20,000 nt of DNA from an uncultured virus (IMG/VR IMGVR_UViG_3300034102_003702) (IMGVR_UViG_3300034102_003702:54384-74383), one strand, 5' to 3'. Shown: positions 1 to 20,000, counted from the first letter of the stretch. Notes: generated by a model not told the origin, from the sequence alone. Made by a program: numbers and translations.

Positions 1-1
1 A

Positions 2-904
2 AAAGCACTTGAATATGGTCAAGAGTTTCTAAACGTATCTAAACCTTACTTTGATAGTTTTAGAATTCTTGCTTTTATTCGTTGTAGTCAAATTCTACTG
101 AATACGGGTGATATGCAACGAGGAATGAATTATGCATTCCACGCAGTTAGTGAAGGAATGAATATGGGAGGTTCTCATTTATCTCAAGCATTCCAATACT
201 TGTTTGAACTTTCTAAGAGATTGAATAATCCCAATCTTACAATCTTTGCAACTGGTTTCAATCCAGATATGCTTTCATCACCAGAAAGAATTGATGCGAT
301 TGATAAACTATTCTTAACCAATCTTGAAGATATTCCTTCTTGCTGGAGAGGTCACCGTAGATTTGCTGAGTGGTTAGTAACGCAAGTCAACCCAGAAGTA
401 ACTGTGGATCTTGGAGTTGATTGGGGATTCTCAACTTTCTGTTTTGCGATGCCTCGTATTGGACAAGTTTATGGTGTTGATACTTTTGAAGGAGACCAAT
501 TTACTGGCGGAAATCACGGATCTTATGAGTATGTTCTTAATAAGCAAGAGAAACTGTTTATGAATGACAATGTGACTTTCATCAAAGGACTTTTTGATGA
601 GGTTGCAAAGACTTGGGATAAGCAAATTGACATTCTTCATATTGATGGTGATCACGCATATGAATCAGTAAAGCACGATTATGAAACTTGGAGTCCATTT
701 GTAAAAGAAAATGGTGTGATACTATTCCACGATACTTGTATTGAAGAACTGAATGGAAATCAATATGGCGTGAAGAAATTCTTTGATGAACTTGATCTTC
801 CAAAAGTAACATTTACTCATACTTTTGGTCTTGGAGTTGCTTCAAAAAATAAGGATCTGATTGAGTTTATCAAGAATAACTTTGATTTGAATAATCCACT
901 ATGA
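2..904 (+). CDS. 5'-truncated protein: helical TPR-like region fused to a class I SAM-dependent methyltransferase (Methyltransf_24-like)
   Basis: The frame is open from base 2 (KALEYGQEFLNVSK...), so the true start lies upstream of the window, not at 113. The C-terminal part has VDLGVDWGFS (SAM motif I), GVDTFEGD, IDILHIDGDHAYESVKHD and GVILFHD, typical of Methyltransf_24. Confidence 0.8.
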   Translation, partial: KALEYGQEFLNVSKPYFDSFRILAFIRCSQILLNTGDMQRGMNYAFHAVSEGMNMGGSHLSQAFQYLFELSKRLNNPNLTIFATGFNPDMLSSPERIDAIDKLFLTNLEDIPSCWRGHRRFAEWLVTQVNPEVTVDLGVDWGFSTFCFAMPRIGQVYGVDTFEGDQFTGGNHGSYEYVLNKQEKLFMNDNVTFIKGLFDEVAKTWDKQIDILHIDGDHAYESVKHDYETWSPFVKENGVILFHDTCIEELNGNQYGVKKFFDELDLPKVTFTHTFGLGVASKNKDLIEFIKNNFDLNNPL

Positions 905-4284: not shown

Positions 4285-6147
4285 ATGGCGGATCCAAATA
4301 TTAAGATAAAAAGGTCAGCAGTTCCCGGTAAATCGCCGCAGGTAAGTGATTTGCCTTTGGGAGAACTTGGGCTTAATACATATGATGCAGAGTTATATGC
4401 CCGTAGAGAAAGAGCAGGTATCGGCACCGATATTGTAAGACTTGGTGCTGGAGCAACAGTTACTAATATACTTTATGTTACGCAAGATGGAAGCGACACC
4501 AATACAGGAAAAAAACTTGGAGACGCAAAAAGAACAATCGGAGCAGCACTTACAACAGCAACAACAGGAACAGTTATTAAAATTAGTGCTGGATCTTATC
4601 TAGAAAATAATCCTCTCACTATTCCAGAGCAAGTATCAATTGTTGGAGATAGTTTAAGAGAAGTATCAGTATCTCCACAGAATGCAAATCAAGACTTGTT
4701 CTATGTTTCTAATGGAAATTATATTGCAGAGATGTCTTATACAGGCACTCTGAATTCTGGTAAAGCAATCTTTGCATTCAATCCAACTCAAGTAGGATAT
4801 TTCAATCAGTCACCTTATATACAGAACTGCACTAACTTTATTCCAAACAGTATTGGACTAAAGATTGATGGATCAAAGGCAATAGGACCATTAAAGTCAA
4901 TGGTCCTAGATTCTTATACACAATACAATCAGGGTGGTATTGGTTGCTCAATTACCAATGAAGGTTATGCCCAGTTAGTATCACTATTTACAATTTGCAA
5001 TGAGACTGCAGTTTATTGTGGTTCTGGTGCTGCTTGTGATTTAACAAACTCCAACTCTTCATTTGGAAATTATGCACTAGTTGCTGATGGAAGAGGTCCC
5101 CTTAAATATACTGGTATTGTTACCAGTGCATCTGCAGAGAATTCAGATACTTTTGTTCTAGATTTAAATGTCCCAACTTTAAATGTAACAAATGCTTCTT
5201 ATAATAATGTAACTGGATTAACCACCATTACGGTAGGTTCAAATCATAACTTCAATGTTGGAATGGGAGTTTCGATTGTTGGACTTGCATTTACTTGTTC
5301 TTCTGGTCCAGGAATTGTAACTTATCCCTCAGGAAATAAAGGATATATTTTTGAGGTTGCAGGAGTTCCTTCACCAACTTCTTTTGAAGTTTATGTCGGA
5401 GTTTCTACTTTATCACATACTTATCAGTCAGGCGGAATAGTAAAAATAAATGTAGTAAGACCTTTTGACGGTCAAGTGATTTACTTTGATACTCTTTATT
5501 ATACTGTTGGTGGAGTAACTGTAAGTTCTGGTGGAACAGGTTACTCCCAGAATGTTGATATTACTTTTGACAATCCTTCTACGCCTTGGGGAATTCCTGC
5601 AACTGCCGTAGGAGAAGTTAAAAATGGTTCTGTAACTTCTGTTGAAATGGTCTCAAATGGTCGTGGTTATACAACGGCACCAGTACTAACCTTCAATTCT
5701 CCCGATGTTGGAATAAATTCGGCAACAGGAACAGCAAATCTTGTTCCGTCTTATTACGTAATACAATCATCAACACCAATTTCTGCTGGAATCTGTACTA
5801 TAACTATTACTGATAATGTTCCTTATGCAATTGGCGTTGGAACAACAGTTCCTTTCTTTAAGCAAAGTAGAGTATTAGCATCGGGACATTCTCTTGAATA
5901 TATTGGTTCGGGAACAAACATTGCAGCTGCACTTCCACAAAATGGTGGTGTACCAATTCAAGGAAATGAAACTGATTCTCTCAATGGTGGTCTTGTAGTA
6001 TTTACTTCAACTGACCAATCTGGTAATTTTAGAATTGGTGATGGTGTTGTAATTAATCAGCAAACAGGAACCATTAGTGGAACATTCTATTCTAAGAGTT
6101 TGTTTTCAACAATGACACCATTCATACTCGCACTAGGAGGAGATTAA
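4285..6147 (+). CDS. Tail fibre/spike protein, 620 aa (T4 gp37-like N-terminus, probable pectin-lyase-like beta-helix)
   Basis: IKIKRSAVPGKSP...LPLGELGLNTYDAEL resembles the T4 gp37 N-terminus (recalled as IQFKRSK.AG.RP...LAEGELAIN). LYVTQDGSDTNTG...KRTIGAAL...IKISAGSYLE resembles a beta-helix cap. Also VxSGGTGY/GRGYTTAP repeats. Confidence 0.7.
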   Translation: MADPNIKIKRSAVPGKSPQVSDLPLGELGLNTYDAELYARRERAGIGTDIVRLGAGATVTNILYVTQDGSDTNTGKKLGDAKRTIGAALTTATTGTVIKISAGSYLENNPLTIPEQVSIVGDSLREVSVSPQNANQDLFYVSNGNYIAEMSYTGTLNSGKAIFAFNPTQVGYFNQSPYIQNCTNFIPNSIGLKIDGSKAIGPLKSMVLDSYTQYNQGGIGCSITNEGYAQLVSLFTICNETAVYCGSGAACDLTNSNSSFGNYALVADGRGPLKYTGIVTSASAENSDTFVLDLNVPTLNVTNASYNNVTGLTTITVGSNHNFNVGMGVSIVGLAFTCSSGPGIVTYPSGNKGYIFEVAGVPSPTSFEVYVGVSTLSHTYQSGGIVKINVVRPFDGQVIYFDTLYYTVGGVTVSSGGTGYSQNVDITFDNPSTPWGIPATAVGEVKNGSVTSVEMVSNGRGYTTAPVLTFNSPDVGINSATGTANLVPSYYVIQSSTPISAGICTITITDNVPYAIGVGTTVPFFKQSRVLASGHSLEYIGSGTNIAAALPQNGGVPIQGNETDSLNGGLVVFTSTDQSGNFRIGDGVVINQQTGTISGTFYSKSLFSTMTPFILALGGD

Positions 6148-6151
6148 TCAA

Positions 6152-6481
6152 ATGGCACTAGCACTTAACGTATTCAAGACAGTTACTACAGTTGTAAATA
6201 CAAATCCAACAGAGGTTTATTCGGCACCTGTCGGATATACGGGTGTCGTCCTTTTAGCGCAAGTTGCAAATATTGGAGTAATTTCTGCAGATGTAACTTT
6301 AGTTCATCGTAGAAGTTCTACTGATACTGAAATGTTAAGGGAATATCCAATCTCAGCAAATGATACTGCAAATCTTCTAGCAGGAAAATTAGTATTAGAA
6401 AGTGGAGATAAATTAGTTCTATCAGGTAGTAATGGAATTACTTTGAAGTTTATTGCAAGTATTCTAGAAACACTTAACTAA
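6152..6481 (+). CDS. Small beta-rich virion structural/fibre adaptor protein
   Basis: NVFKT...VYSAP...QVANI...GKLVLESGDKL...SILE pattern; GGAGG ribosome-binding site upstream. Confidence 0.6.
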   Translation: MALALNVFKTVTTVVNTNPTEVYSAPVGYTGVVLLAQVANIGVISADVTLVHRRSSTDTEMLREYPISANDTANLLAGKLVLESGDKLVLSGSNGITLKFIASILETLN

Positions 6482-6490
6482 TATAAAGAA

Positions 6491-9400
6491 ATGGCAAAGT
6501 TCATCAGTAATCGTCAAAAAAATCTTAAGATTGGTATTAGTTCATATACCGAAAGTCAGACAGTGCTTGAGGTTACTGGTAAGGTTGGTATTGGAAACAC
6601 AAATGCAACACAAGAATTAGATGTTGATGGAAATGTTAGAATTCGTGGTGCAATCTACGATAATAATAATAGTCCCGGAAATAATACATATGTTCCTGTT
6701 GCAGATGGTAGTGGTGGTTGGAGTTGGCAACCAGTTACTCAAGCAGGTGCAGGAACTCTTGATGGCATTGTAGTAAGAGAAGAAGGAAATATTGTAGGAA
6801 CTGCTGGTAGCGTAACAAATTTAGACTTTAGAGGAAATAACATAATTGCTATTTCCACTACTGGAGGTGCTATTGCAACGATAAGGGTTTCCGATACTCC
6901 AACATTCAATAGTTTGACGGTTTCTGGAATTTCTACATTTAATGGATTAGTAGAACTTGATAGTTCTTTAAGAGACTTTTATGGAAATGTAGGTGCTGCA
7001 GGTAGTGTTTTAATTGCTATTGGAGCTGGTGTTTCTTGGGCGGCGCCGGCATCTGTAGGAACGCAAGGTATTCAAGGAACTCAAGGCACTCAAGGTATTC
7101 AAGGCACTCAAGGACTTCAGGGTACTCAGGGAACTCAAGGTGTCCAAGGAACTCAAGGTATCCAAGGAACTCAAGGTATCCAAGGCATTCAAGGATCCAC
7201 AGGCACTCAAGGTACTCAAGGAACCCAAGGCATCCAAGGAACTCAAGGTATCCAAGGAACTACTGGAACTCAAGGAACTGATGGAACTCAAGGAACCCAA
7301 GGTACTCAAGGTGTCCAAGGTACTCAAGGTATCCAAGGAACTACTGGAACTCAAGGAACTGATGGAACTCAAGGAACCCAAGGTACTCAAGGAACCCAAG
7401 GCATCCAAGGAACTCAAGGTATCCAAGGAACTACTGGAACTCAAGGAACTCAAGGAACCCAAGGTACTCAAGGTGTCCAAGGTACTCAAGGTATCCAAGG
7501 AACTACTGGAACTCAAGGAACTGATGGAACTCAAGGAACCCAAGGTACTCAAGGTGTCCAAGGTACTCAAGGTATCCAAGGTATCCAAGGAATTACTGGA
7601 ACTCAAGGTGTTCAAGGAACTCAAGGTATTCAAGGTGTCCAAGGTACTCAAGGTATCCAAGGAACTACTGGAACTCAAGGAACTCAAGGAACTCAAGGAA
7701 CTGATGGAACTCAAGGTACTCAAGGTACTCAAGGTATTCAAGGTGTCCAAGGTACTCAAGGTATTCAAGGTGTCACAGGTCCAGTAGCAGGTTCTGCCAA
7801 TCAAATTGTTTATAAAGATGGATCAAATAATCCTACCGGGTCTACCAATTTAACTTTTGATGGTTCTAATCTTTATGTTGGTGGAAATATCACAATTGGG
7901 GGTACATCATCATATATTATATCTAACGAACTTAGAATCAAAGATAAGGATCTTGTAGTTGGTATTGTTACCGATGGTCTTGGTAATGATACCTCTACAG
8001 ATACAACAGCTAACACGGGTGGTATTGCAATTGCATCCACAGAAGGTAGTCCATTAGTTAGTTTAAGTTCTGCTGGAGAAGTAACACCAGATACCTATAA
8101 GCAGTTAATGTGGTTTAAGTCTGGTTCCTTTACTGGTCTCAATACTGATGCTTGGATATTTAATTATGGTGTTGGTATTGGTTCTACACAAATTCCATTA
8201 GGAGTTAGACTTGCTGCTGGAGGAATGCAGGTTACTGATTCTACAGTAAGCACTCCACAATTGAGTGTTTCTGGGAGTTCTACATTCACTAACGGACCTG
8301 TATTAATAGGTTCAGCAACATCAACAGGAACAGCAGATCAAGATCTTCAAGTTACTGGTGGTGCTTATGTTTCTGGTTCTGTTGGAATAGGAACCACAAA
8401 TGCAACAACAAAATTACAAGTTAATGGAACCACAAAGGTAGAAACTTCAATAGGAAGCACTCAATCAGTTTGGTTCAATACATTAGACAGTAAGAGTTAT
8501 ACTGCACAAAATGTTTCTTTATTAGTTCAACCAGAAACTGTATATAGTTTTGATGCTTCTCAAACTGCTTTTAGATCTTATGAACCAGCAATATTCAGTT
8601 CTGCATTAACTTCTGCAAATGGAAGTTATAATTCAACTCTATATGGACTTGATAACCTTACTAATGTTGCAGGAACTTCATCTGCTGCAAGACTTACTGG
8701 AATTGGATTTTATAATTATGTTGCTAGAAACAGCACCACTGATGTTTCTTCTTATGCATCTAATTTGCTTTATGGAATTTCTAACATCGTTTTTCAAGGA
8801 TCTAATGTAGACCAATCTGTTGTAACTGGATTTGCGTATGGAAATCGTAATCTTGTAGGAGTCCAAAAAGCAACTGCAACTACCATTTATGGAAATTTTA
8901 CTACAACAAATATTGGTGCAACAGCAAACTACTCTGCATCATCAACCAGTGCATATGGTCATTATAACCTTATGCAGGTTGGTGCTGCATCAGGAACTGG
9001 TATTGGAACTCTCACCAATTACTATGGATATTATGGAGCACCAACAGTAGCACTTACAGGACAACTTACAAATTATTATGGTGTATATCTAGCAACTCCA
9101 ATTGTAAATGGAACTCTAACCAACCGTTATTCCATTTATAGTTCTGATACATCTTCACAGATGTATCACGCAGGTTCTATTGGAATAGGAACCACAAATC
9201 CAACATCAAAACTTACGGTTCAAGGTGATGTAAGAGTTTCTGGTGCTTCTACATTTGTTGGATTAGTAGAACTTGATAGTTCTTTAAGAGACTTTTATGG
9301 AAATGTAGGTGCTGCAGGTAGTGTTTTAATTGCTACTGGTGCTGGTGTTTCTTGGACAACTCCATTTGCTGCCGGAATTCAAGGTGTCCAAGGAACTCAA

Positions 9401-10927
9401 GGAATCCAAGGAATCCAAGGTGTCCAAGGAACTCAAGGAATCCAAGGTGTCCAAGGAATCCAAGGTGTCCAAGGAACTCAAGGAATCCAAGGTGTCCAAG
9501 GAACTCAAGGAATCCAAGGTGTCCAAGGTATTCTTGGAACTCAAGGAACTACGGGAACACAAGGTATCCAAGGTATTCTTGGAACTCAAGGAACTACGGG
9601 AACACAAGGTATCCAAGGTATTCTTGGAACTCAAGGAACTACGGGAACACAAGGTATCCAAGGTATTCTTGGAACTCAAGGAACTACAGGAACACAGGGC
9701 ATCCAAGGTATTCTTGGAACTCAAGGAACCACAGGAACTCAAGGTATCCAAGGTATCACAGGCCCAGTAGCAGGATCTGCTAATCAAATCGTTTACAAGA
9801 ATAGTTCAAATAATCCAGATGGTTCTACCAGTCTTACATATACTGGAGCAGTATCTGGTGTAGGTACTGTGGGAATCGGTACTATTATTGATATTGTTCA
9901 TTATGACGCTTTAAATTCAGGCACTCTTTCTTTTGAAGGTTCTGCAGGGCAGTTATTCAGTATTACTAATAACCTTACCACTGGTTCTATTTTCTCTGTT
10001 AATGATGTTTCTGGCATTCCTAGTATTGATGTAGGTGCTGCGGGGACAGTTTCTCTTGCACCTTATGGTGGTGATGTTGTAGTAGGACAAGCAATTATTA
10101 ATAGATGGGTAAGAAAAACTGCAAACTATACTGCAGTAAATGGTGATAGCATAATTGCAGACACTTCTGGAGGAACCTTTACAATTACACTTCCAGCAAC
10201 ACCATCAATAGGTCATAATATTAGAATTGCGGATGGTGCAGATTGGGCAACAACCAATCTAACATTAGGTAGAAATGGTTCAACAATTGAAGGTATTACT
10301 GATGATTTTACTTTTAATATCAAAGGCATTACTGCAGATATAGTTTATGATGGAAGTACTTGGGAAGTTTATGCTAATGCTGGTCCAAGTGGTCCTCAAG
10401 GTATTCAGGGTAGTGCTGGTTTTGTTGGTAGCAATGGTGCTCAAGGTACTACAGGTGCTCAAGGTACAGCAGGAACTAGCGGAAGTTCCTCAATTACAAA
10501 TGACAATTCCACGAATGCAACAAGATATCCTACATTTGTTGATGTTACAACAGGAACACCTAGTGCAACAAATGTTTCATCATCAAAATTTACATTTAAT
10601 CCATCTACAGGAACCTTATCTGCTACGATTTTTACATCATTATCTGATGAAACAGAAAAAACAAACATTAAAATCATACAAAATTCTATAGAAAAAATTA
10701 ATAAACTTGACGGTGTAACATTTAACTGGGTAGATAATAATGCTCCTTCATCTGGTGTTATTGCTCAACAAGTTGAAAAAGTTTTACCAGAACTGATATT
10801 AAATATCAATGGCAAAAAGACAGTTAATTATAATGGTTTGATTGGTCTTTTAATTGAGGCATTTAAAGAATCTCAAAAAGAAATGCAAAAAATTAAAAAT
10901 CATCTAAGTAATCTAAATAATCAATAA
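6491..10927 (+). CDS. Long tail fibre protein, 1478 aa, with collagen-like segments and C-terminal intramolecular chaperone (peptidase S74-like)
   Basis: Three G-X-Y tracts; VGIGTTN repeats; T4 gp34/gp9-10-like domain ([23 protein letters not shown]); C-terminal SDETEKTNI...LDGVTFNW...[15 protein letters not shown]...[16 protein letters not shown]. Confidence 0.9.
6943..7019 (+). repeat. 77-bp exact direct repeat, copy 1 (copy 2 at 9259-9335)
   Basis: tggattagtagaacttgatagttctttaagagac...gtgttttaattgcta is identical at both sites. Confidence 0.9.
7058..7786 (+). repeat. Collagen-like tract 1, 81 G-X-Y triplets ([15 protein letters not shown])
   Basis: 9-bp periodic repeat of 729 bp with higher-order repeated blocks. 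Confidence 0.95.
9259..9335 (+). repeat. 77-bp exact direct repeat, copy 2
   Basis: Identical to 6943-7019. Confidence 0.9.
9374..9769 (+). repeat. Collagen-like tract 2, 44 G-X-Y triplets including a 45-bp unit ([15 protein letters not shown]) repeated about 5 times
   Basis: Direct reading of DNA and protein. Confidence 0.95.
10382..10489 (+). repeat. Collagen-like tract 3, 12 triplets
   Basis: [36 protein letters not shown]. Confidence 0.85.
10912..10919 (+). promoter_or_regulatory. Possible late promoter (TCTAAATA)
   Basis: In the last codons of the fibre gene, 9 nt before the ATG at 10929; would give a nearly leaderless transcript. Confidence 0.35.
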
Positions 10928-10928
10928 A

Positions 10929-11438
10929 ATGCCTACTTCTCTTTCAAGTTTTTTAGGTACAACTTATCAAGGAGCCACAGGTGCTCAAGGAACCACAGGT
11001 GCTCAAGGAACCACAGGTGCTCAAGGAACCACAGGTGCTCAAGGTGCAACAGGTGCTCAAGGTGCAACAGGTGCTCAAGGAACCACAGGTGCTCAAGGAA
11101 CCACAGGTGCTCAAGGAACCACAGGTGCTCAAGGACCATCAAATGTTCCTCAAAATGCAAAAACTACTTCGTATACATTAATTGCATCAGATGCTGGAAA
11201 ACATATATCAATTACTACAGGCGGAGTAACCGTTCCTGCATCAGTTTTTAGTGTAGGTGACACAATTTCTGTTTATAATGATTCTGGTTCAAATCAGACA
11301 ATCACTCAGGGTTCCGTAACTTTGAGAAATGCTGGCACTACTAGTACTGGAAATAGAACACTTGCCTCATATGGAATTTGTACTATTTTATGTGTTGCAT
11401 CAAATACCTTTGTAATTTGTGGAGCTGGGTTATCTTAA
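10929..11438 (+). CDS. Short collagen-like fibre protein with C-terminal beta domain
   Basis: Nine (GxTGAQ) units followed by [21 protein letters not shown]...[11 protein letters not shown]...FVICGAGLS. Confidence 0.8.
10971..11141 (+). repeat. 18-bp tandem repeat x9 (collagen-like, 19 triplets)
   Basis: ggaaccacaggtgctcaa and ggtgcaacaggtgctcaa units. Confidence 0.95.
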
Positions 11439-11440
11439 TT

Positions 11441-13213
11441 ATGGTAATACATCAATTATTTTTTACTTCTATACAATTGGGATTATATCCATTTACAACT
11501 TTTACGTTTACAAATGGAACTCAAATTGGAAATATTGGACCCTCAACGGCAAATCTCCTAGCTTCATATGATACTGCATCTAATTCTTGGTTAAATAATG
11601 CATCATATTTTACCACATCAAGTGGAATTCAACTATGGACTGTTCCACGAACTGGAACCTATACTATAGAAGTTGCGGGAGCAGCTGGCGGGGGAACTGC
11701 TACTACTCCGGGATATGGTGCCAAAATGATTGGAACATTTTCACTAACTCAAGGAGATGTTATTAAAATTCTTGTAGGGCAATTAGGTCGTAACGGAACA
11801 GCTGATTGTGGCCAAGGTTTTGGTGGTGGAGGAGGAGGAACTTTTGTTGCAACAAATTCCAATGTCCCATTAATTGTAGCAGGTGGTGGAGGAGGTTCTT
11901 CTTCAGGAGTAATTACTGCTTCTAGATTAAATGGAACAACTTCCACATCAGGAAATCAAGGAGATGGTGGTTCTGGTGGAGCAGGAGGGACTGCTGGTGG
12001 TGGTGGGGGTGCTGGAACTGGATGTGTACCCGCAAGTTCTGGTGGCGGTGGATTTACTGGAAATGGTACTACAGCACAAGGAAATCCGGGGCTTTCCTTT
12101 ATAAACGGAGGAACCGGAGGGACAGGGACAAGAGCAGATGGTGGATTTGGTGGAGGAAGTGGAACCGCTAACTACACTGGTGGCGCCGGCGGTGGATATA
12201 GTGGCGGCGGCGGCGGTGGATTAAATAGCTGTGCTTGCTCCGACTTGCAGGGTGGCGGTGGTGGTGGTTCGTACAATAATGGAACAAATCAATCTAATAC
12301 TGGTGGAGTAAATACTAGTAATGGTTATTGTAAAATAACTCTCCAAGGAGCACCATCACCAGTGGTTCAGTACCTCGTTATTGCTGGCGGTGGTGGTGGG
12401 GGAGGATATATTGGAGGTGGCGGTGGTGCTGGTGGTTATAGAACTGCAACAGGATTTACTTTCAGTACTGCAACAAACTACACTGTAACAGTTGGTGCAG
12501 GTGGTGCTGGCGGTACATCCTCTGCAAACTTTAGTACTCCAGGAAATCAAGCAATCTCTAATGCAACTAATGGAGGAAATTCCGTCTTCTCAACTATTAC
12601 TTCAACTGGTGGAGGAAAAGGTGCTAATGCATATTCCCTAAACGGTGCGAATGGTGGTTCTGGTGGTGGTGCTTCTCAAGAATATGTCGGTGCTGCAACT
12701 GCAGGTACTGGAACTTCTGGAGAAGGTAATAATGGTGGAAGAGGGTCAACATCAACAAACTATGGTTCAGGTGGTGGTGGTGGTGCTGGAACAGTTGGTG
12801 CAACAGCATCTGGATCTGGAACTGGTGGAAATGGTGGAGATGGATTATCTTCAAGTATAACAGGAACTGCAGTTACTCGTGCAGGAGGTGGTGCTGGTGC
12901 AAGTTATACATCTCAGGGCGGTGCTGGCGGGAGTGGCGGTGGCGGTCAGGGAGGCAGCGGTGGCGGAACTTCACCAACAAGAGCATCAATTTCAGGAACT
13001 ACAAATACTGGCGGTGGCGGTGGTGGTGCTGCTGTAGGTGATGGAACTAATGGAGTTGGTTCTAATGGTGGTTCAGGTGTCGTTATTCTTAGTTATTCGA
13101 CTACTTACACTATAAGTAATCCAGGAGGAGGTCTAACCTTCACCACACAAACTGTAGGAAGTAATAAAGTAACTACTTTCACTCTAGGAACTGGAAACAT
13201 TCAATTTAATTAA
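11441..13213 (+). CDS. Glycine-rich putative adhesin, 590 aa, with two tandem glycine-rich modules (first is ALK/LTK-like)
   Basis: ATG at 11441 directly after the upstream stop is more plausible than TTG at 11378. Module 1: GIQLWTVPRTGTYTIEVAGAAGG...LTQGDVIKILVGQ...GGGGGTFV...PLIVAGGGGG. Module 2: VQYLVIAGGGGGG...GGGGAGGYR...YTVTVGAGG...NTGGGGGG...GGSGVVILSY. Confidence 0.8.
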   Translation: MVIHQLFFTSIQLGLYPFTTFTFTNGTQIGNIGPSTANLLASYDTASNSWLNNASYFTTSSGIQLWTVPRTGTYTIEVAGAAGGGTATTPGYGAKMIGTFSLTQGDVIKILVGQLGRNGTADCGQGFGGGGGGTFVATNSNVPLIVAGGGGGSSSGVITASRLNGTTSTSGNQGDGGSGGAGGTAGGGGGAGTGCVPASSGGGGFTGNGTTAQGNPGLSFINGGTGGTGTRADGGFGGGSGTANYTGGAGGGYSGGGGGGLNSCACSDLQGGGGGGSYNNGTNQSNTGGVNTSNGYCKITLQGAPSPVVQYLVIAGGGGGGGYIGGGGGAGGYRTATGFTFSTATNYTVTVGAGGAGGTSSANFSTPGNQAISNATNGGNSVFSTITSTGGGKGANAYSLNGANGGSGGGASQEYVGAATAGTGTSGEGNNGGRGSTSTNYGSGGGGGAGTVGATASGSGTGGNGGDGLSSSITGTAVTRAGGGAGASYTSQGGAGGSGGGGQGGSGGGTSPTRASISGTTNTGGGGGGAAVGDGTNGVGSNGGSGVVILSYSTTYTISNPGGGLTFTTQTVGSNKVTTFTLGTGNIQFN

Positions 13214-13221
13214 GAAAAGTT

Positions 13222-13605
13222 ATGGCCCATTATGCATTTTTAGACGAAAATAACATTGTAACTGAAGTTATCACTGGCAAAAATGAAGGTGAAGATGGAA
13301 TTAATTGGGAAGAACACTATGGAAACTTTAGAGGTCAGGTTTGTAAAAGAACCTCATATAATACTATAGGAGGGAATCATAATAATGGTGGAACTCCCTT
13401 TAGAAAAAATTATGCTGGTGTTGGATATATTTACGACGATGAAAAAGATGCTTTTATTTCACCAAAACCATATGAAAGTTGGATATTAAATGAAGATACT
13501 TGTTTATGGGAATCACCAATTCCTTATCCAGAAGATACAGAAAACTTATATTTTTGGAATGAAGAGGAATATAAATGGGATAATATGAACAGTTCATTAG
13601 GTTGA
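13222..13605 (+). CDS. Conserved phage protein following the glycine-rich adhesin (possible fibre assembly chaperone)
   Basis: MAHYAFLDENNIVTEVI...RTSYNT...FRKNYAGVGYIYD...DAFISPKPYESW...WESPIPYP; acidic and aromatic. Function inferred from position. Confidence 0.65.
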   Translation: MAHYAFLDENNIVTEVITGKNEGEDGINWEEHYGNFRGQVCKRTSYNTIGGNHNNGGTPFRKNYAGVGYIYDDEKDAFISPKPYESWILNEDTCLWESPIPYPEDTENLYFWNEEEYKWDNMNSSLG

Positions 13606-13613
13606 ATCTCACT

Positions 13614-13621
13614 CATAAATA
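13614..13621 (+). promoter_or_regulatory. T4-like late promoter (CATAAATA)
   Basis: Intergenic, 32 nt before the ATG at 13654 that opens the enzyme operon. Confidence 0.65.
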
Positions 13622-13653
13622 CAGTATCAAAGGATTTAATTGATAATTAAATT

Positions 13654-14625
13654 ATGAATTTTGCAAAAATTGCTTTAGATAATGGTGGTTCAATTCATCC
13701 AATCATAATTCCATCTCATTTAAATGATGGGTTGGGTATTATGAACCCATCGGTTTATATTCATAAAGGTAAGGTTTTAGTTAATCTCAGAGCAGTCAAT
13801 TACACATTTTATCATTCGGAAAAGAAACTTTTCCAGCATCCATATGGACCATTGACATATCTTCATCCAGAAGATGATATGCACCTGAGAACTAAAAATT
13901 ATTATTTGGAACTCAATGATAAGTATGAAATCACTAGAATAAATGCAATAGATACTTCAAAATTTGATACATACGAACCCCAATGGGACTTTGTTGGTCT
14001 TGAAGATGCAAGACTCTTTGAATGGGAAGGGAAACTTTATACTTGTGGAGTTAGAAGAGATTTAGATACTGTTGGAACTGGCAGAATGGAACTTTGCGAA
14101 ATCAAAGTTTCTGATAATAAAGTCGTAGAAACATCAAGATTTCGCATTCCAACTCCAGGAAATGATGACGAATATTGCTCAAAGAATTGGATGCCAATTC
14201 TAGACAAACCATATCATTTTATAAAGTGGAGTAATCCAACAGAAATTGTTAAAGTAAATCCAGAAGATAAAACCTGCGAAACAGTGTTCACTGGAGAATA
14301 TAAATCAATTCCAAGAGATCTTAGAGGAGGTTCTCAGGTCATTCCTTGGAGAGATTATTATGTTGCAATTACTCATGAAGTTGATTTGTTCAAAAGTGGA
14401 ACTGGAAGAAAAGATGCAATATATCGCCATAGAGTAGTATTCTGGGATAAAAATTTTAACCTAGTTAAATGGACAAATGACTTTTCCATTATGGGAGGGG
14501 ATGTTGAATTTTGTGTTGGATTAATTCAACAAGGTTCTGATTTCCTAATGACTTATGGATTTCAAGACAATGCAGCATATCTTATTAAGTTTCCAGAAAA
14601 AGTGTTTGAGGATTTTATCAAATGA
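13654..14625 (+). CDS. Five-bladed beta-propeller carbohydrate-active enzyme (GH130/GT91-like)
   Basis: Motifs MNPSV, GLEDARLF, KNWMP, LRGGSQ, VEFCVGL, TYGFQDN. Confidence 0.6.
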   Translation: MNFAKIALDNGGSIHPIIIPSHLNDGLGIMNPSVYIHKGKVLVNLRAVNYTFYHSEKKLFQHPYGPLTYLHPEDDMHLRTKNYYLELNDKYEITRINAIDTSKFDTYEPQWDFVGLEDARLFEWEGKLYTCGVRRDLDTVGTGRMELCEIKVSDNKVVETSRFRIPTPGNDDEYCSKNWMPILDKPYHFIKWSNPTEIVKVNPEDKTCETVFTGEYKSIPRDLRGGSQVIPWRDYYVAITHEVDLFKSGTGRKDAIYRHRVVFWDKNFNLVKWTNDFSIMGGDVEFCVGLIQQGSDFLMTYGFQDNAAYLIKFPEKVFEDFIK

Positions 14626-16718
14626 ATGAACTACAAGAACTTCTAGATTATTATGTACATCATACTGAAGAACCAGAGATTAATTTCAAATTAGCAATTT
14701 ATTATCATTCTATTGGGCAAACTGCATCTGCTATTTCTTATTATATCCGAACCGCAGAAAGAACAGAAGATAAAACTTTAATGTATGCTTGCCTGCTTTC
14801 TGCATCAGAATGCTTTGATTCTCAGGGATGTAGGAGCAATTCTGTCAAAGGACTTCTTCAAAGTGCAATTGCAGTAGATCCAAAGAGACCTGAAGGATAT
14901 TATCTACTCTCAAGATTTTATGAAAGAGAAAAGAATTATCACGATTCATATTTGATTGCATCTATTGGGGAAAAAGTTTCTGATTTTAATGCAAAACCAC
15001 TACCACTCAAGGTTGATTATTTTGGATATTGTGGAATTTTATTTGAAAGAGCAGTATCTGCTTGGTGGTGTGGACTTTGTGATGACAGCCATTTAATGTT
15101 TTTGGATCTCAAAACAAATTATTGGAATCAATTAAATGAATCGCATAAGCAAGCAGTTTTGAATAATTTAAAACTCTTCAAAAAAGAATTTGATTGGGGA
15201 GAAATTGAACAAAACAAATGGTTCAAAAAGGTTATAATCGATGAAGTCTTTACCAGAGATGTCTATCAAAAATTCTTTAAAGTGGATGAGGATGATTTGG
15301 TTGTAGATATTGGTGCAAGTGTTGGACCATTTACATATAAAATTTTAACACAAAATCCAAAGCAAGTTTATTGTTTTGAACCTCAGAGTTCTTTGTTCAA
15401 AACACTCAGTCAGAATTTAGAAAAGCATCAAAATGTAACTCTTATCAATAAAGGAATTGCATCAGTAAATGGTGAGTTTGAAACTGGTGGTCTTTATGAT
15501 AAAGACTGTACAGAAACTTGGGAAAAGATTCAAACAACAAATGGACTTAGATTTGATACTTTCCTAAAAGAAAATGATATTGAAAAAATTGATTTTCTTA
15601 AGGTAGATTGTGAAGGTGGTGAGTATGATATTTTCAATGAAGAGAATCGTCCTTGGATTGTAAAAAATGTTCGTAAGATTGCTGGAGAGTTTCATCTAGC
15701 AACACCAGACCAAAAGAAAAGATTTGTTGAATTTAGAGATACTTATCTCAATGATTTTAATAAAGTTGAAATCTATTCTTGCGATGATGTTGATATTAAA
15801 TGGAGTATGTGGGATGACTGGGCAGTAGAACGATATAATGAAATCATAATTTATATTGATAATACAGAAGTACTAGAAAACTTCTGGAACATCACTCCTT
15901 GGGCTACGATGGAATTTACTACATCAATTCCCAAGAAAGGATGTGTAGTAGATTGTGCATTCTGCCCTCAGAGAATTCTTGAGAAATCTTATGTGGATGA
16001 GACTAGATTTCTAACTCTAGACAACTTCAAAAAAATGGTAGATAAACTACCACAAGAAATTCGTGTAACCTTCGCAGGATTTACTGAACCTTGGTTGAAT
16101 AAAGATTGTACTGATATGCTTCTATATGCTCACGAAAAGGGGCACAGAATAGCAGTCTTTACAACTGGAATTGGAATGAAAGTTGATGATGTTTATAGAA
16201 TTAAAGATGTACCTTATGATTTGGGACCAAATGGTAAGTTCGTCCTACACCTACCTGATGCAGAAAGAATTGCAAAACATCCAATCACAGACAATTACAT
16301 TAAAGTTCTAGAAGCATTCAAAGAAGTTCATAAGGATATTCGAGGTTTCTATACAATGGCAATGGGTGAAGTACATCCCGATGTTAAGCACATATTCCCC
16401 GAAGCAATTGTTCCTGCTTTCTGGAATCGTGCAGGAAATCTTGTTGGTGAAGCAATGCTAAAACCAGAACTTCTCAATCTTCAAGACCGCTATAAATCAG
16501 TCTATCACGGAGAGGAACCAAGAACTTGTGGTTGTGATGAACACCTATATCACAATATTGTTCTTCCTAATGGTGATGTATCTCTATGCTGTATGGATTA
16601 TAGTTTGAAGTTTATTATCGGAAACCTATTGGACCAAGAGTATAAAGACATTGCACCTCAACCAAATACTTGTTTTGATATGTGTCGTTTCTGTGAAAAT
16701 GGAGTAAAGCACAAATGA
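14622..16718 (+). CDS. Fusion: TPR-like region + FkbM-family methyltransferase + radical SAM with SPASM/Twitch-like domain
   Basis: TPR-like helices (AIAVDPKRPEGYYLLSRFYE); VVDIGASVG, CFEP and IDFLKVDCEGGEYDI (FkbM); CVVDCAFC at 15942-15965 (CxxxCxxC) with GFTEP and FTTG; C-terminal CGC...VLPNGDVSLCCMD...IGNL...CFDMCRFC. Confidence 0.85.
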   Translation: MNELQELLDYYVHHTEEPEINFKLAIYYHSIGQTASAISYYIRTAERTEDKTLMYACLLSASECFDSQGCRSNSVKGLLQSAIAVDPKRPEGYYLLSRFYEREKNYHDSYLIASIGEKVSDFNAKPLPLKVDYFGYCGILFERAVSAWWCGLCDDSHLMFLDLKTNYWNQLNESHKQAVLNNLKLFKKEFDWGEIEQNKWFKKVIIDEVFTRDVYQKFFKVDEDDLVVDIGASVGPFTYKILTQNPKQVYCFEPQSSLFKTLSQNLEKHQNVTLINKGIASVNGEFETGGLYDKDCTETWEKIQTTNGLRFDTFLKENDIEKIDFLKVDCEGGEYDIFNEENRPWIVKNVRKIAGEFHLATPDQKKRFVEFRDTYLNDFNKVEIYSCDDVDIKWSMWDDWAVERYNEIIIYIDNTEVLENFWNITPWATMEFTTSIPKKGCVVDCAFCPQRILEKSYVDETRFLTLDNFKKMVDKLPQEIRVTFAGFTEPWLNKDCTDMLLYAHEKGHRIAVFTTGIGMKVDDVYRIKDVPYDLGPNGKFVLHLPDAERIAKHPITDNYIKVLEAFKEVHKDIRGFYTMAMGEVHPDVKHIFPEAIVPAFWNRAGNLVGEAMLKPELLNLQDRYKSVYHGEEPRTCGCDEHLYHNIVLPNGDVSLCCMDYSLKFIIGNLLDQEYKDIAPQPNTCFDMCRFCENGVKHK

Positions 16719-17326
16719 TGTATTCTCTTCACGAACAAAAACTTGCAGAGAATCCAAAACCATCAGTATTTGTGGTGGATAATTTCTACAATGACCCAGA
16801 TATCGTTCGTAGATTTGCATTATCGTTAGATTATGAGTTTTCTGATTACCACAGAGGTAGAAGAACTCAAGACCAATATTTTATTCCAGAAACTAAAGAA
16901 GCATTTGAAAGAATTATTGGTAAAAAGATTAGTGCTTGGGGAGAAACTTATGGAATGTGCGGAAGATTTCAGTATTGTACCGCAGAGGATGCACTTGTTT
17001 ATCACGCAGATAGTCAGAAGTGGGCTGGAGTCGTTTATCTAACTCCAGATGCTCCTTATGAATCTGGTACATCATTACTTGCACATAAGAAAACTGGAGT
17101 AAGACATTGTGACCATCCCGACATTATGAATGTATGGGCAGAAGCAGCACCAACTGGAGTACATTTGGATGCAACACCTTGGGAAGAGATTGATAAAATT
17201 GCGAATGTTTATAATCGCTTGGTGATTTGGGATGGTCATTGTCCTCACGCTGCATCTAAATATTTTGGATTCACTAAAGAAACTTCAAGATTGTTTCATT
17301 TGTTCTTTTTTGATACGGAATTTTAA
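16715..17326 (+). CDS. 2OG-Fe(II) oxygenase (DUF6445-like)
   Basis: VVDNFYNDPD; HAD (HxD); AGVVYLTPDAP; NRLVIWDG..PH; distal R in SRLFHLFFF; ATGA overlap with the upstream gene. Confidence 0.75.
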   Translation: MMYSLHEQKLAENPKPSVFVVDNFYNDPDIVRRFALSLDYEFSDYHRGRRTQDQYFIPETKEAFERIIGKKISAWGETYGMCGRFQYCTAEDALVYHADSQKWAGVVYLTPDAPYESGTSLLAHKKTGVRHCDHPDIMNVWAEAAPTGVHLDATPWEEIDKIANVYNRLVIWDGHCPHAASKYFGFTKETSRLFHLFFFDTEF

Positions 17327-17340
17327 TAAGGAAATAAAAG

Positions 17341-18003
17341 ATGGCACTTGCTCACTCACCCTCTATAACTACATCAGGATTAGTCCTTTGTTTAGATGCA
17401 GGAAACACAAAGTCTTATCCTGGTTCTGGAACCACTTGGACTGATTTGAGTGGTAATGGTAATAATGGAACTTTTGTAAATACACCAACTTATAGTAGTT
17501 CTAATAAAGGAAGTATTATATTTGATAGTACAGACTATGTTACCACTTCCGCAGTTGTTGAATCAGCAACAAATTCAAACTTACAGACTTTTAGTGGATG
17601 GTTGGTGGGTGATGGAGCATTATTTGGAAGTAATGCGAGCGGAATAGGTCAGAATCATTTGCGAGCATCTTTAAGTGGAACAACTTTAACTTATCGAGTA
17701 TCTTATTACGGCGGTGCCGCTGGAGAAATAGATGATACTACCACAGTTTCTCCATTTTCCATTAATAACATTGTAATCGTTAAAACAGCAGCAGAAAAAT
17801 ATGATGTTTATTTTAATGCTGTTAAAGTTATGAATCAAGTGACAAAAAAAGCATCAGTTAGCACTTCATTTTATCCTGGACTTTATTATAGTGGTTCATA
17901 TAATAACGGAACTGTTTGTAACTATATGATATACAACAGAGCACTCACAGCATCAGAAATCCAACAAAACTTCAACGCACTCCGAGGTCGTTTCTCAATT
18001 TAA
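17341..18003 (+). CDS. Concanavalin A-like lectin/LamG-domain virion protein 1
   Basis: GLVLCLDAGNTKSYPGSGTTWTDLSGNGNNGT...IYNRALTASEIQQNFNALRGRF. Confidence 0.8.
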   Translation: MALAHSPSITTSGLVLCLDAGNTKSYPGSGTTWTDLSGNGNNGTFVNTPTYSSSNKGSIIFDSTDYVTTSAVVESATNSNLQTFSGWLVGDGALFGSNASGIGQNHLRASLSGTTLTYRVSYYGGAAGEIDDTTTVSPFSINNIVIVKTAAEKYDVYFNAVKVMNQVTKKASVSTSFYPGLYYSGSYNNGTVCNYMIYNRALTASEIQQNFNALRGRFSI

Positions 18004-18011
18004 CCTAAATA
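18004..18011 (+). promoter_or_regulatory. T4-like late promoter (CCTAAATA)
   Basis: Directly after the stop codon; GAGG ribosome-binding site before the ATG at 18038. Confidence 0.65.
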
Positions 18012-18037
18012 CAAAAACGAAGAGGTATTGAGAGAGA

Positions 18038-18691
18038 ATGGGAATTGCTTATAATCCACGCACAGTTACTGATGGATTAGTTCTGTGTCTTGATGCGGGC
18101 AATACAAAGTCTTATCCTGGTTCTGGAACCACTTGGACTGATTTGAGTGGTAATGGATATAATATGACTTTAACAGGCAGTCCAACATTTACATCAACAA
18201 ATGGAGGTGTTCTTCAGTTTAATGGTTCAACACAGTATGGAACTTTAAGTTCTTTGAATTATTCTGGATCTACTTTCACTATTATTGCAGCAGCAAGATA
18301 TTCTGGTGCAACTAGAGGAAGGATAATAACTTCAAATACTAATAACTGGTTATTAGGTCATTGGGGTTCTACTACAGAAAATTATTATGCCGAAGGTTGG
18401 ATAAGTGCTGTTGGTGCTGGTGCTAATGATACAAACTGGAGAATACTTGCTGCAACAGAAAACTATGGTTCAGACTTAAGAAGTTTATATGTAAATAATG
18501 CTGTTAAAGTTTCAAACTCAACTTCAGGGTCAGCAGGATTTAATGGATTGAGTGTTGGTAGGTGGGGAGGAGGAGCATCAGAATATTCAACTTGCGAAGT
18601 TTCATTCATCTATGTTTATAATAGAATTTTATCTACAACTGAATTAACACAAAACTATAATGCATTAAGAGGGAGGTTTGGTCTTACCTAA
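18038..18691 (+). CDS. Concanavalin A-like lectin/LamG-domain virion protein 2
   Basis: Same terminal motifs as paralogue 1 (YNRILSTTELTQNYNALRGRFG) around a different core. Confidence 0.8.
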   Translation: MGIAYNPRTVTDGLVLCLDAGNTKSYPGSGTTWTDLSGNGYNMTLTGSPTFTSTNGGVLQFNGSTQYGTLSSLNYSGSTFTIIAAARYSGATRGRIITSNTNNWLLGHWGSTTENYYAEGWISAVGAGANDTNWRILAATENYGSDLRSLYVNNAVKVSNSTSGSAGFNGLSVGRWGGGASEYSTCEVSFIYVYNRILSTTELTQNYNALRGRFGLT

Positions 18692-18694
18692 ATA
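18687..18694 (+). promoter_or_regulatory. T4-like late promoter (CCTAAATA)
   Basis: Overlaps the stop codon; same octamer as at 18004. Confidence 0.65.
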
Positions 18695-18711
18695 CTAATA
18701 AAATCTTAAAA

Positions 18712-19899
18712 ATGGGTGCGTTCTCCGGTCCAGACATTTTAGAAAGTGGACTAGTTCTTGCATTAGACGCTGCAAATAAGAAATCATACTCTCAAAATGA
18801 GTTTCAGTATTCTACTGATATTTTTGCTTGGTATAATAGTAGTTCAGGAAACGCATCAACAATATCAAGAGATACTATAAGTTCTCCAGTTGGCAATACT
18901 CCATTGAAAATGGCAGTAACTGGAAATGATCCACATCTGGGAAGCTATAACTCTGGTGTTTGGAATATTGCACCTGCTGCAAATGGACAAACTTGGGTTG
19001 TAAGTGTATATGTGAAAGCAGATGTTGCTACTACAGGACAGATTTTTATTTTTGGTGCAAATAGTGCTGGAACTGGATTTGTTGGTGGTGCTTGGTTAGC
19101 AATATCTGCAGTTGGTTTTAATATAACGACTGAATGGACCAGAGTAAGTCATTATATTACTATGGCAAACGCAGATATTGCTTATATTCATACAAGATTA
19201 GACGGTCCAGATAGTGGAGGAACTGGTCAAAATATTTGGTGGGATGGACTACAAGTAGAAAGAGTACCTTCAGGAACTACAACACCAACGCCATTTACTT
19301 CATCTTATTATGGTGGAAGTGTTTATAAAGATTTGGTTGGTTCTAATAATGGAACTTTAGTAAATTATCCAACTTATAATGGGTCTAATGGAGGTTCTTT
19401 GGTTTTTGATGGTGTGAATGATTATGTAAATTTGGGGTCATTTTTTAATTATACCAATTTTACTATTTCTTTGTGGGTATATCCAGGTTCAACTCAAGTT
19501 CAATACGCGGATATTTTTGATAATAATCATACCGGAGGTCAAAATTTTGTTTGTCAACAAAACAGTACAACTACTAATCAATACAGTTTTTCTTGTATTA
19601 ATGCAACAAATGGTAGTGGTACATCAGTATTTAATTTGACCGCAAATACTTGGACATTTCTTACATTTACTTGGAATAATAGTGTTGCAAGTGCTTATAT
19701 TAATGGAGTATTTCACTCCAGTGGAGCAGCAGCAAATCCAATTAATTATTCATCTCAATATTTAAGATTAGGAACTTGGGGAGGTGGTGGTAGAAATTGG
19801 AATGGTAGAATATCTAATTTTATAGCGCATAATCGTGTCCTCACAGCATCAGAAATCCAACAAAATTACATAGCAACTAAATCCAGATACGGGCTCTGA
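18712..19899 (+). CDS. LamG-domain protein 3 with an inserted carbohydrate-binding-module-like domain
   Basis: GLVLALDAANKKSY; insert with VSVYVKA...ITTEWTRVS...WDGLQVE; then FDGVNDYV...FTISLWVYP...WTFLTFTW...YING...NRVLTASEIQQNY. Confidence 0.8.
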   Translation: MGAFSGPDILESGLVLALDAANKKSYSQNEFQYSTDIFAWYNSSSGNASTISRDTISSPVGNTPLKMAVTGNDPHLGSYNSGVWNIAPAANGQTWVVSVYVKADVATTGQIFIFGANSAGTGFVGGAWLAISAVGFNITTEWTRVSHYITMANADIAYIHTRLDGPDSGGTGQNIWWDGLQVERVPSGTTTPTPFTSSYYGGSVYKDLVGSNNGTLVNYPTYNGSNGGSLVFDGVNDYVNLGSFFNYTNFTISLWVYPGSTQVQYADIFDNNHTGGQNFVCQQNSTTTNQYSFSCINATNGSGTSVFNLTANTWTFLTFTWNNSVASAYINGVFHSSGAAANPINYSSQYLRLGTWGGGGRNWNGRISNFIAHNRVLTASEIQQNYIATKSRYGL

Positions 19900-19900
19900 T

Positions 19901-19956
19901 CCACTTTAAAAACTGTCCACTGACCTCCCAAAACCGACTTGGGAGGTTTTATAGTA
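19901..19956 (+). promoter_or_regulatory. Putative cyanophage early-type promoter
   Basis: CCACTT...AACTGTCCAC upstream element plus TATAGT -10-like hexamer at 19950-19955; resembles my recollection of T4-like cyanophage early promoters. Confidence 0.45.
19922..19950 (+). terminator. Hairpin, probable terminator of the late cluster
   Basis: GACCTCCCAA-AACCGAC-TTGGGAGGTT followed by TT; the U-tract is short. Confidence 0.55.
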
Positions 19957-19978
19957 GGTGGAGACACACAAAGACCCT

Positions 19979-20000
19979 ATGCGGTTCTCCAACCTAGACC
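19979..20000 (+). CDS. Possible start of a small ORF (MRFSNLD...) running off the window
   Basis: ATG at 19979 downstream of the putative promoter; only 7 codons are visible. Confidence 0.35.

Follow-up and report, generated by a model that had tools for sequence, protein, structure and literature searches.

In a 20,000-nt stretch of an uncultured virus (IMG/VR record IMGVR_UViG_3300034102_003702, positions 54384-74383; the window, counted below from its first nucleotide), a single intact open reading frame (ORF) on the plus strand (14622-16718; ATG start; 698 amino acids, aa) encodes a TPR-like helical repeat, an FkbM-family methyltransferase using S-adenosylmethionine (SAM), and a radical SAM domain with a Twitch-type C-terminal end. 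This triple fusion is a genuine, intact chain. Its gene is the second in a trio of translationally coupled genes kept across uncultured T4-like viruses, and it represents one permutation of a widespread, virus-specific set of modules. We propose, with moderate confidence, that the trio acts in soluble glycan tailoring, combining O-methylation with radical oxidation, most likely on the fibres of the virion.

A preliminary description of this DNA, made from the sequence alone, had placed TPR-like, FkbM and radical SAM/Twitch domains on one chain, and this layout was borne out by the ORF, by structure prediction and by domain searches (Pfam, NCBIfam and PHROG, with bit scores judged against curated cut-offs). 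The TPR-like, all-helical repeat occupies aa 1-211 (14622-15254), as assigned from the helices of the model and a match to a consensus TPR (CTPR); the class I SAM methyltransferase aa 212-415 (15255-15866; PF05050, TIGR01444, phrog_8156); the radical SAM core aa 416-625 (15867-16496; PF04055, CxxxCxxC, domain model); and the Twitch-type end, a truncated SPASM domain and putative auxiliary Fe-S domain, aa 626-698 together with the stop codon (16497-16718; PF13186, cysteine pattern). The full-length model (pLDDT, the predicted local distance difference test, 82.7; pTM, the predicted template modelling score, 0.46) consists of the corresponding three parts, namely a helical repeat, a Rossmann-type domain and a radical SAM part. 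Whole-chain Foldseek matches of this model to OGT and SPY (template modelling score, TM, ~0.2; root-mean-square deviation, rmsd, 27-30) reflect a TPR-plus-Rossmann layout only, and were set aside as evidence of homology.

The possibility that the fusion is an assembly artefact, raised in the preliminary description, is ruled out by several lines of evidence. Two IMG/VR loci (L002 and L003) encode the fusion at 100% identity, and an independent 3740-nt contig from metagenome run X6, which was not flagged as a possible source, covers positions 13654-17326 with 15 substitutions and zero gaps. Both the TPR/methyltransferase and the methyltransferase/radical SAM junctions are bridged by contigs from runs X7, X8 and X10, and the same domain order recurs in 96/120 of the best near-length relatives. 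In addition, 24 lake-water metagenome runs each contain 50% or more of the sampled words, and five of these runs are possible sources.

The TPR-like assignment is weak by sequence (TPR_17 at aa 78-107, 21.2 bits, under the cut-off of 24.4; relatives score 27-28 bits against TPR hidden Markov models, HMMs) and is supported by the predicted fold, in which aa 1-211 are all helix (H2-H211) and the N-terminus is matched by the designed consensus TPR 9gzg_A (TM by target 0.79, rmsd 2.9, 168 columns). Positions 4-183 of the fusion also align at 37% identity with the N-terminus of ORF195 of the isolate phage S-SCSM2R.

For the methyltransferase domain, PF05050 (Methyltransf_21/FkbM) covers aa 229-377 (E 3.2e-11; 44.1 bits, cut-off 22.7), the NCBIfam model fkbM_fam (TIGR01444) matches at 68.5 bits (cut-off 37.7) and phrog_8156, 'methyltransferase', at E 3.6e-14, while the strand and helix pattern at aa 226-413 of the full-length model is of Rossmann type. 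Across 43 aligned full-length relatives (51-95% identity), D229, G231, S233 and G235 of motif I, as well as E253 and H358, are invariant; so are D324, K327, D329, G332 and E334 in the block spanning D324 to E334, with E331 retained in at least 90%. The functional roles given to these residues are presumed ones. The domain combines FkbM family scores with a class I SAM-binding motif, and O-methyl transfer is its predicted reaction. Weak matches to RrnaAD, FtsJ and Erm are confined to the generic SAM-binding motif (aa 217-283).

In the radical SAM core, PF04055 (Radical_SAM) is matched at aa 438-533 (E 1.6e-6) with 28.8 bits, slightly below the cut-off of 29.5, which close relatives clear (P0002, 36.9; P0115, 38.1; L091, 36.9 bits). 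The CxxxCxxC motif, described beforehand as intact, reads C441-x3-C445-x2-C448 in the translation (nt 15942-15965), and all three cysteines are present in 303/303 aligned radical SAM domains, the set over which conservation of the core and Twitch residues was counted. A GGE-like motif, G486..E489-P490, is similarly conserved (E489 and P490 in 303/303 domains, G486 in 302/303). Judged from the motif residues kept in relatives, both SAM-using domains look catalytically competent and neither looks dead, in line with the preliminary description.

Further towards the C-terminus, SPASM (PF13186) is matched at aa 638-678 (E 1.5e-5; 25.7 bits, cut-off 21.5). The three cysteine groups claimed there, CGC, CC and CxxxCxxC, are all present (C636-G-C638, C656-C657 and C684-x3-C688-x2-C691; nt 16527-16694) and have a Twitch-like layout; C636, C656, C657, C688 and C691 occur in 303/303 domains, C638 in 300/303 and C684 in 260/303. 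The full SPASM motif, as given in a section of PMC6231123, has seven cysteines in the arrangement CX9-15GX4C-gap-CX2CX5CX3C-gap-C. Its first half fits the fusion, where C638-x12-G651-x4-C656 matches CX9-15GX4C; a beta-hairpin (aa 642-655; strands 642-647 and 652-655) lies between C638 and C656 and is followed by a helix and then by C688-x2-C691. The second half, CX2CX5CX3C...C, does not occur in the fusion, which has C-x3-C-x2-C instead and no final cysteine, the chain stopping 7 residues beyond C691. On this pattern and the predicted fold, the term Twitch, which denotes a truncated form with a single auxiliary cluster, appears to fit the domain better than full SPASM, which has two. The invariant C636 and C657 exceed the four cysteines that a Twitch cluster needs, and the six invariant C-terminal cysteines leave a second cluster site possible.

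The coupling of the trio is evident from its gene junctions, at each of which a 4-nt ATGA is shared by the stop codon of one gene and the start codon of the next (14622-14625 between upstream gene and fusion, 16715-16718 between fusion and downstream gene). The upstream partner, here called PROP (13654-14625, plus strand, 323 aa), is conserved and soluble and shows a weak resemblance to GH130, and the downstream partner (16715-17326, plus strand, 203 aa) is a DUF6445 protein (PF20043), putatively resembling 2-oxoglutarate (2OG)/Fe(II) oxygenases. In 81 related loci, PROP was found directly 5' of the fusion in 70 and DUF6445 3' of it in 66, with the misses falling mostly at contig ends. Four of 17 PROP homologues match PF04041 (Glyco_hydro_130; best E 5.2e-4), a GH130 lead appears in 32% of the members of one PROP cluster of the Atlas, and homologues carry the GenBank labels 'beta-mannosyltransferase' and 'MGP protein'; one of them is listed as the 'first MGP gene in a cyanophage' in a part of PMC12801897. 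DUF6445 scores 31.7 bits against PF20043, above the cut-off, and E 2e-32 against phrog_1644, and its residues H97-x-D99, H178 and R192, invariant in 17 homologues, correspond to an oxygenase-like triad plus arginine. No hydrophobic segments were found in the trio proteins (maximum Kyte-Doolittle hydropathy over 19 residues, KD(19), at most 1.07), and PROP can be taken to have no membrane segment because its maximum is only 0.74. One DUF6445 homologue (L035:2199-2783) contains an in-frame stop, reflecting either a pseudogene or a sequencing error. A promoter and terminator scan of positions 11000-20000 gave no signal (34 promoter-like sites vs 30.6 expected; 3 terminator-like sites vs 4.6).

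The architecture had been called unusual for a phage. This stands for isolates: in a set of 50,697 isolate phage records, 7 have a match to the fusion at all and only one, Synechococcus phage DSL-LC02, matches its full length. It does not stand for uncultured viruses, with relatives encoded in 258 IMG/VR stretches; 888 protein clusters also match (E<=1e-3). The DSL-LC02 protein (WJZ48257, 'FkbM family methyltransferase') is a full-length orthologue (57.5% identity over 99%) in the same three-gene order, and is annotated by name only.

Nor is the fusion a unique arrangement, as an architecture census shows in which the window's own domains served as queries and the best 120 relatives of each class were examined. 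The near-length relatives comprise 96 proteins of the order TPR-methyltransferase-radical SAM, 19 with an additional module (X) between TPR and methyltransferase (in some sampled proteins, an extra methyltransferase-like region), three lacking the TPR, one with X between methyltransferase and radical SAM, and one PROP-methyltransferase-methyltransferase-radical SAM protein. Among the short relatives, 119 are standalone radical SAM proteins and one is a methyltransferase-radical SAM fusion. In long relatives of PROP the modules are combined differently again: PROP-methyltransferase-radical SAM (51), PROP-X (40), PROP-radical SAM (16), PROP-TPR-X (6), PROP-methyltransferase (4), PROP-TPR-X-DUF6445 (1) and other (2). 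Here X is GT2, GT25, GT17 or Methyltransf_24 (Pfam, 12 sampled proteins), and it is Methyltransf_24 in the single PROP-TPR-X-DUF6445 relative. In the isolate S-SCSM2R, PROP (the 'MGP' gene) is followed by a TPR-X-DUF6445 fusion, the ORF195 mentioned above. On a tree of 303 radical SAM domains at least 26 architecture changes are needed, as compared with 121-150 when labels are shuffled; 2 changes separate TPR-fused from PROP-fused forms and 22 separate fused from standalone ones, although some proteins scored as standalone may be truncated ORFs.

The radical SAM family is almost wholly viral. Its domain alone is matched by 315 short proteins (53-75% identity among the 120 listed), and Atlas clusters are 76-100% viral among the top rows. 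A pattern-based scan of 185,579 GTDB species genomes returned five loci (L087-L091) and no informative cellular neighbourhood: L087, L088 and L090 are short contigs of metagenome-assembled genomes (MAGs) with parts of the same viral cassette, L089 is a short MAG contig with the radical SAM part only, and L091 looks viral and encodes a family-B DNA polymerase as well as a standalone radical SAM relative that adjoins GT2 and a weak Methyltransf_24-like ORF (21.1 bits, cut-off 26.3). This last stretch (3438-11686 of L091, a MAG chromosome) directly adjoins bacterial two-component genes, which could be explained by integration of a viral element or by chimeric assembly.

Modelled alone with 55 standalone homologues, the radical SAM part of the fusion reached a pLDDT of 93.4 and a pTM of 0.91, and this model, in keeping with a partial (beta/alpha)6 barrel, aligns at Z>=8 with 19 solved chains, all of them radical SAM enzymes. 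The top structural match is BtrN, the butirosin 2-deoxy-scyllo-inosamine dehydrogenase (PDB 4M7T/4M7S) and prototype Twitch radical SAM enzyme (VIA Z 15.5, rmsd 3.2, 189 aligned residues, 19% identity), which is also ranked first by Foldseek (E 1.4e-8, TM by target 0.60), ahead of CteB at rank 2. Lower Z scores were obtained for ChlB (14.0), SkfB (13.7), SuiB (13.6), CteB (13.3), anSME (13.0), DesII (12.9), EpeE (12.8), viperin (12.6), BlsE (12.0), PqqE (11.8), SpeY (11.1) and MoaA (10.9). The fusion's radical SAM part resembles BtrN in size (~283 aa, as compared with BtrN chains of 246 and 214 residues), in its partial-barrel core, in its cysteine-flanked beta-hairpin and in the CxxC that follows the next helix. 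It differs from BtrN, whose substrate is a sugar-like carbinol, in its sequence (16-19% identity in structural alignments, with no sequence or profile match), in being joined to methyltransferase and TPR modules, in having 6-7 conserved C-terminal cysteines where BtrN has four, and in the viral distribution of its family. The fusion may work like BtrN, but we do not class it as a BtrN-type member. DesII, BlsE and SpeY, which act on nucleotide-sugars or aminoglycoside sugars by carbohydrate C-H abstraction, share the same subfamily fold. These larger enzymes serve secondary metabolism in bacteria and, unlike the fusion, have no methyltransferase attached; no sequence-level relation to them was detected. 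A viperin-like role in defence was considered and rejected, as the PADLOC pVip match (24.7 bits) is limited to the generic region of cluster binding (aa 440-522). Viperin is not known to have a Twitch auxiliary domain.

These structural scores also bear on an explanation in which the substrate is a protein or peptide: the TPR repeat would bind a fibre protein, the radical SAM domain would alter one of its residues (by epimerization, by a thioether or C-C crosslink, or by anSME-like oxidation) and the FkbM domain would then methylate the side chain. SPASM/Twitch maturases score nearly as high as BtrN (ChlB to EpeE in the list above, with CteB second in Foldseek), TPR repeats typically bind proteins, and the whole-chain matches OGT and SPY are TPR-bearing protein glycosyltransferases, though at a TM of only ~0.2. 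The collagen-like genes that adjoin the cassette would offer a substrate, and the extra invariant C636 and C657 could serve as H-atom donors. However, we found no recognition element of the kind used for RiPPs, peptides that are made on ribosomes and altered after translation, and no precursor-peptide gene; the TPR is missing from PROP-radical SAM and PROP-methyltransferase-radical SAM proteins, which make up 67/120 of the best long PROP relatives, and the partner modules are glycosyltransferases. The FkbM family, moreover, acts in O-methylation of sugars and macrolides and is, to our knowledge, not known for protein methylation. We therefore regard direct peptide modification as unlikely, and a sugar substrate is favoured because of the covalent links to glycosyltransferases and to a glycoside-phosphorylase-like protein, and because of the BtrN/DesII-like fold.

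The genomic setting suggests the virion as the place where such a glycan would be found. The record is a 74-kb fragment of a T4-like myovirus from lake water (33% complete by CheckV), with genes for a baseplate hub, tail tube and fibres, ssb, thyX and a gnd-like gene; positions 1-1017 of the window share 85% DNA identity with Synechococcus phage S-SRM01, and the host is probably cyanobacterial. Tail-fibre genes flank the cassette on both sides. Upstream lie two plus-strand genes with PHROG tail-fibre/collagen-like matches (6491-10927, 1478 aa; 10929-11438, 169 aa), whose products are candidate substrates. They contain 137 and 19 G-x-x triplets, respectively, with X mostly T, I or A and Y mostly Q or T, and these runs of 411 and 57 aa are the sole long ones in the record; the distance from their ORFs to the cassette downstream is no more than 3.2 kb. 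Two further ORFs have 24-aa G-x-x runs, one of them the Gly_rich_2 gene (11390-13213, plus strand; PF21722, E 1.9e-17) situated between fibres and cassette. The repeats are G-T-Q, G-I-Q and G-A-T: over 3026 triplets, X is T in 40%, A in 21% and I in 16%, and Y is Q in 60% and T in 26%. Lysine is outside the ten commonest residues at both X and Y; proline makes up ~2% of X, and at Y lysine and proline each account for <1% and neither is among the ten commonest.

Across related loci, a collagen-like ORF was found within the fetched flanks in 36/81. After deduplication, 47 loci have 400 nt or more of sequence upstream of PROP; a collagen-like ORF lies immediately 5' of PROP in 21 of them and within 3 kb in 27. 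The arrangement of the window recurs in L088, where the order is collagen, an unknown ORF, Gly_rich_2, a 2OG oxygenase, PROP, fusion and DUF6445. Just 5' of the fibre block are a 511-aa fusion of GT2 and Methyltransf_24 (TylF-like; window 1-904, record 53752-55287) and a 260-aa sulfotransferase (L085:12290-13072), which add to the glycan-decorating enzymes of this region. According to a section of PMC7029224, which offers no analysis of them, pelagimyophages have cassettes with radical SAM genes in their hypervariable fibre region. A full-text literature search (supplements excluded) yielded no paper in which the fusion or the cassette is analysed.

Location beside fibre genes has also been read in another way. 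In the sections of PMC7029224 that deal with marine myophages, glycosyltransferase-rich hypervariable regions by the tail fibres are taken to modify the host O-chain, and a part of PMC12801897 places the S-SCSM2R homologue of PROP among 'cell wall synthesis and modification' genes; GT25, an 'LPS biosynthesis' family, is among the fused partners. The cassette could accordingly alter a sugar of the host's lipopolysaccharide (LPS), S-layer or exopolysaccharide, blocking superinfection or aiding release. We consider such host-surface remodelling improbable: all three trio proteins are soluble, no flippase, polymerase or lipid-carrier enzyme was found in or next to the trio within the window, the cassette's order goes along with fibre genes even in loci that are only ~50% identical, and the readings in the consulted sections of both papers are at the level of annotation rather than experiment.

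For glycan tailoring on the fibres, the following course of events can be pictured. The substrate would be a sugar residue of a glycan, one hydroxyl of which the FkbM domain would O-methylate by SN2 transfer, while the radical SAM domain would abstract hydrogen from a sugar carbon. The auxiliary cluster, as in BtrN or DesII, would be the electron sink, either for a two-electron oxidation to a keto-sugar or for a subsequent epimerization or elimination. The TPR repeat may dock the methyltransferase-radical SAM pair onto the GH130-like PROP, a role hinted at by the PROP-methyltransferase-radical SAM proteins that lack a TPR, or onto the acceptor protein. The glycan would most likely be carried by threonines of the neighbouring collagen-like (G-T-Q)n fibres, such that the cassette would decorate the virion. 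Sequential action on one protein-bound substrate, as suggested in the preliminary description, is plausible given the fusions of glycan enzymes and the adjacency of collagen-like fibres.

Several observations weigh against this proposal. The link to GH130 is weak, as the window's PROP has no Pfam match and the PF04041 HMM finds nothing genome-wide, and PDB sequence and profile searches with PROP gave nothing usable. Only one of 17 DUF6445 homologues touches a 2OG Pfam model (2OG-FeII_Oxy_3, E 0.15), and DUF6445 has no PDB match; the trio itself contains no nucleotide-sugar synthesis gene and no classic protein O-glycosyltransferase. The radical SAM domain has no match to any solved structure in the PDB by sequence or profile, the peptide-modifying enzymes ChlB, SkfB, SuiB, CteB, anSME and EpeE lie only 1.5-2.7 Z below BtrN, and function cannot be read from similarity in the SPASM/Twitch subfamily according to a section of PMC6231123. 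Finally, 26/47 loci have no collagen-like ORF immediately upstream, and collagen-like adjacency may merely reflect residence in a tail-fibre module, the loci being related and the counts not independent.

An oxygenase-like protein beside two SAM enzymes could instead serve to build a modified DNA base that withstands restriction, with glycosyl-handling proteins contributing. T4-like phages do modify their DNA, and base-modification systems that pair an oxygenase with a glycosyltransferase are known in phages. Yet the cassette is housed with fibre genes and away from those for replication or nucleotides; at E<=1, no Tet/JBP model is matched by any of the 17 homologues of DUF6445, the single 2OG-FeII_Oxy_3 hit being their only match; Pfam and NCBIfam searches found no kinase, DNA-binding or base-flipping domain; and the RrnaAD, FtsJ and Erm matches of the fusion cover nothing beyond the generic SAM-binding motif. 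DNA hypermodification thus seems very improbable.

Known systems offer partial parallels to tailoring of a fibre glycan. Glycans of BclA, a collagen-like protein of the Bacillus exosporium, sit on threonines. Sections of PMC10050317 and PMC6222408 describe BclA as densely glycosylated, with a 2-O-methylated terminal sugar; unlike the cassette, it comes from bacteria, the antABCD pathway that makes its sugar has no sequence relation to the cassette, and it is not known to involve a radical SAM step. The chlorovirus PBCV-1 protein A064R, as covered in part of PMC9614988, is likewise a virus-encoded multidomain protein, uniting two glycosyltransferase domains and a sugar 2-O-methyltransferase on one chain, and it acts on a structural protein of the virion, whose glycan it both assembles and methylates; in contrast to the fusion, it has no radical SAM or TPR module and comes from a eukaryotic virus. 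The same source describes, for viral collagen-like proteins, mimivirus L230, which joins a GT25-like glucosyltransferase to a lysyl hydroxylase. L230 thus pairs a 2OG/Fe(II) oxygenase motif (HxD...H, Arg) with GT25, resembling the DUF6445 and GT25 modules found here, whereas the repeats next to the cassette differ from L230 targets in composition. Because these repeats are almost without lysine, hydroxylysine-linked glycosylation of the L230 type is unlikely, and hydroxylation of lysine or proline in the collagen-like repeats was set aside given the scarcity of both residues in the 3026 triplets. O-glycosylation of threonine is a likelier analogue than the hydroxylysine route, and the BclA example agrees with it.

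A more specific version of the proposal, which we put forward only tentatively and consider doubtful, is that the viral Twitch radical SAM family provides a dedicated step in virion protein glycosylation and, together with FkbM, the GH130-like protein and DUF6445, builds an oxidized, methylated sugar on the (G-T-Q)n threonines of cyanophage fibres. If true, no virus would previously have had a radical SAM enzyme in the glycosylation of its structural proteins, and a host that evolves oxygen would contain an oxygen-sensitive enzyme next to one that depends on oxygen. Glycosylation of phage fibres can alter host range, particle stability and recognition; apart from mycobacteriophages and giant viruses, there is hardly any documentation of it. 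Viral metagenomes from lakes and the sea are rich in the cassette, which is nearly absent from cultured phages, so that its chemistry is unexplored. Natural fusions tie five poorly characterized modules (GH130-like, TPR, FkbM, radical SAM and DUF6445) into one pathway, and the radical SAM part offers enzymology a compact, virus-specific Twitch family. With a candidate substrate encoded next door and the full trio present in the cultured phage DSL-LC02, the question is directly testable.

Several other features of the region were recorded. The Gly_rich_2 gene has two possible starts (TTG at 11378, ATG at 11390), either choice overlapping the collagen-like gene at 10929-11438, and its glycine-rich stretch shows a local GC content of up to 0.50 with a strong GC skew. 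A 127-aa gene between the glycine-rich gene and the cassette (13222-13605; phrog_7759, unknown function, E 3e-39) recurs only in L024 (43% identity), besides the identical L002, and is therefore outside the conserved trio. On the 5' side of the fibres are three paralogues with RCC1 ('regulator of chromosome condensation') repeats (L085:3643-4857, 5521-6768 and 11086-12273; record ~43.6-52.3 kb). A 680-aa structural protein (1947-3989) matches Mtd_N, the N-terminal domain of the major tropism determinant of Bordetella phage, over its first 36 residues (E 1.5e-7). Downstream of the trio, positions 17341-19899 encode three tandem paralogues (220, 217 and 395 aa) that have a Laminin_G_3/ConA-like domain, a common N-terminal motif, a C-terminal 'LTASEIQQN..ALRGRF' and PHROG 'virion structural protein' matches, with short matches to S-PM2 at ~90% DNA identity.

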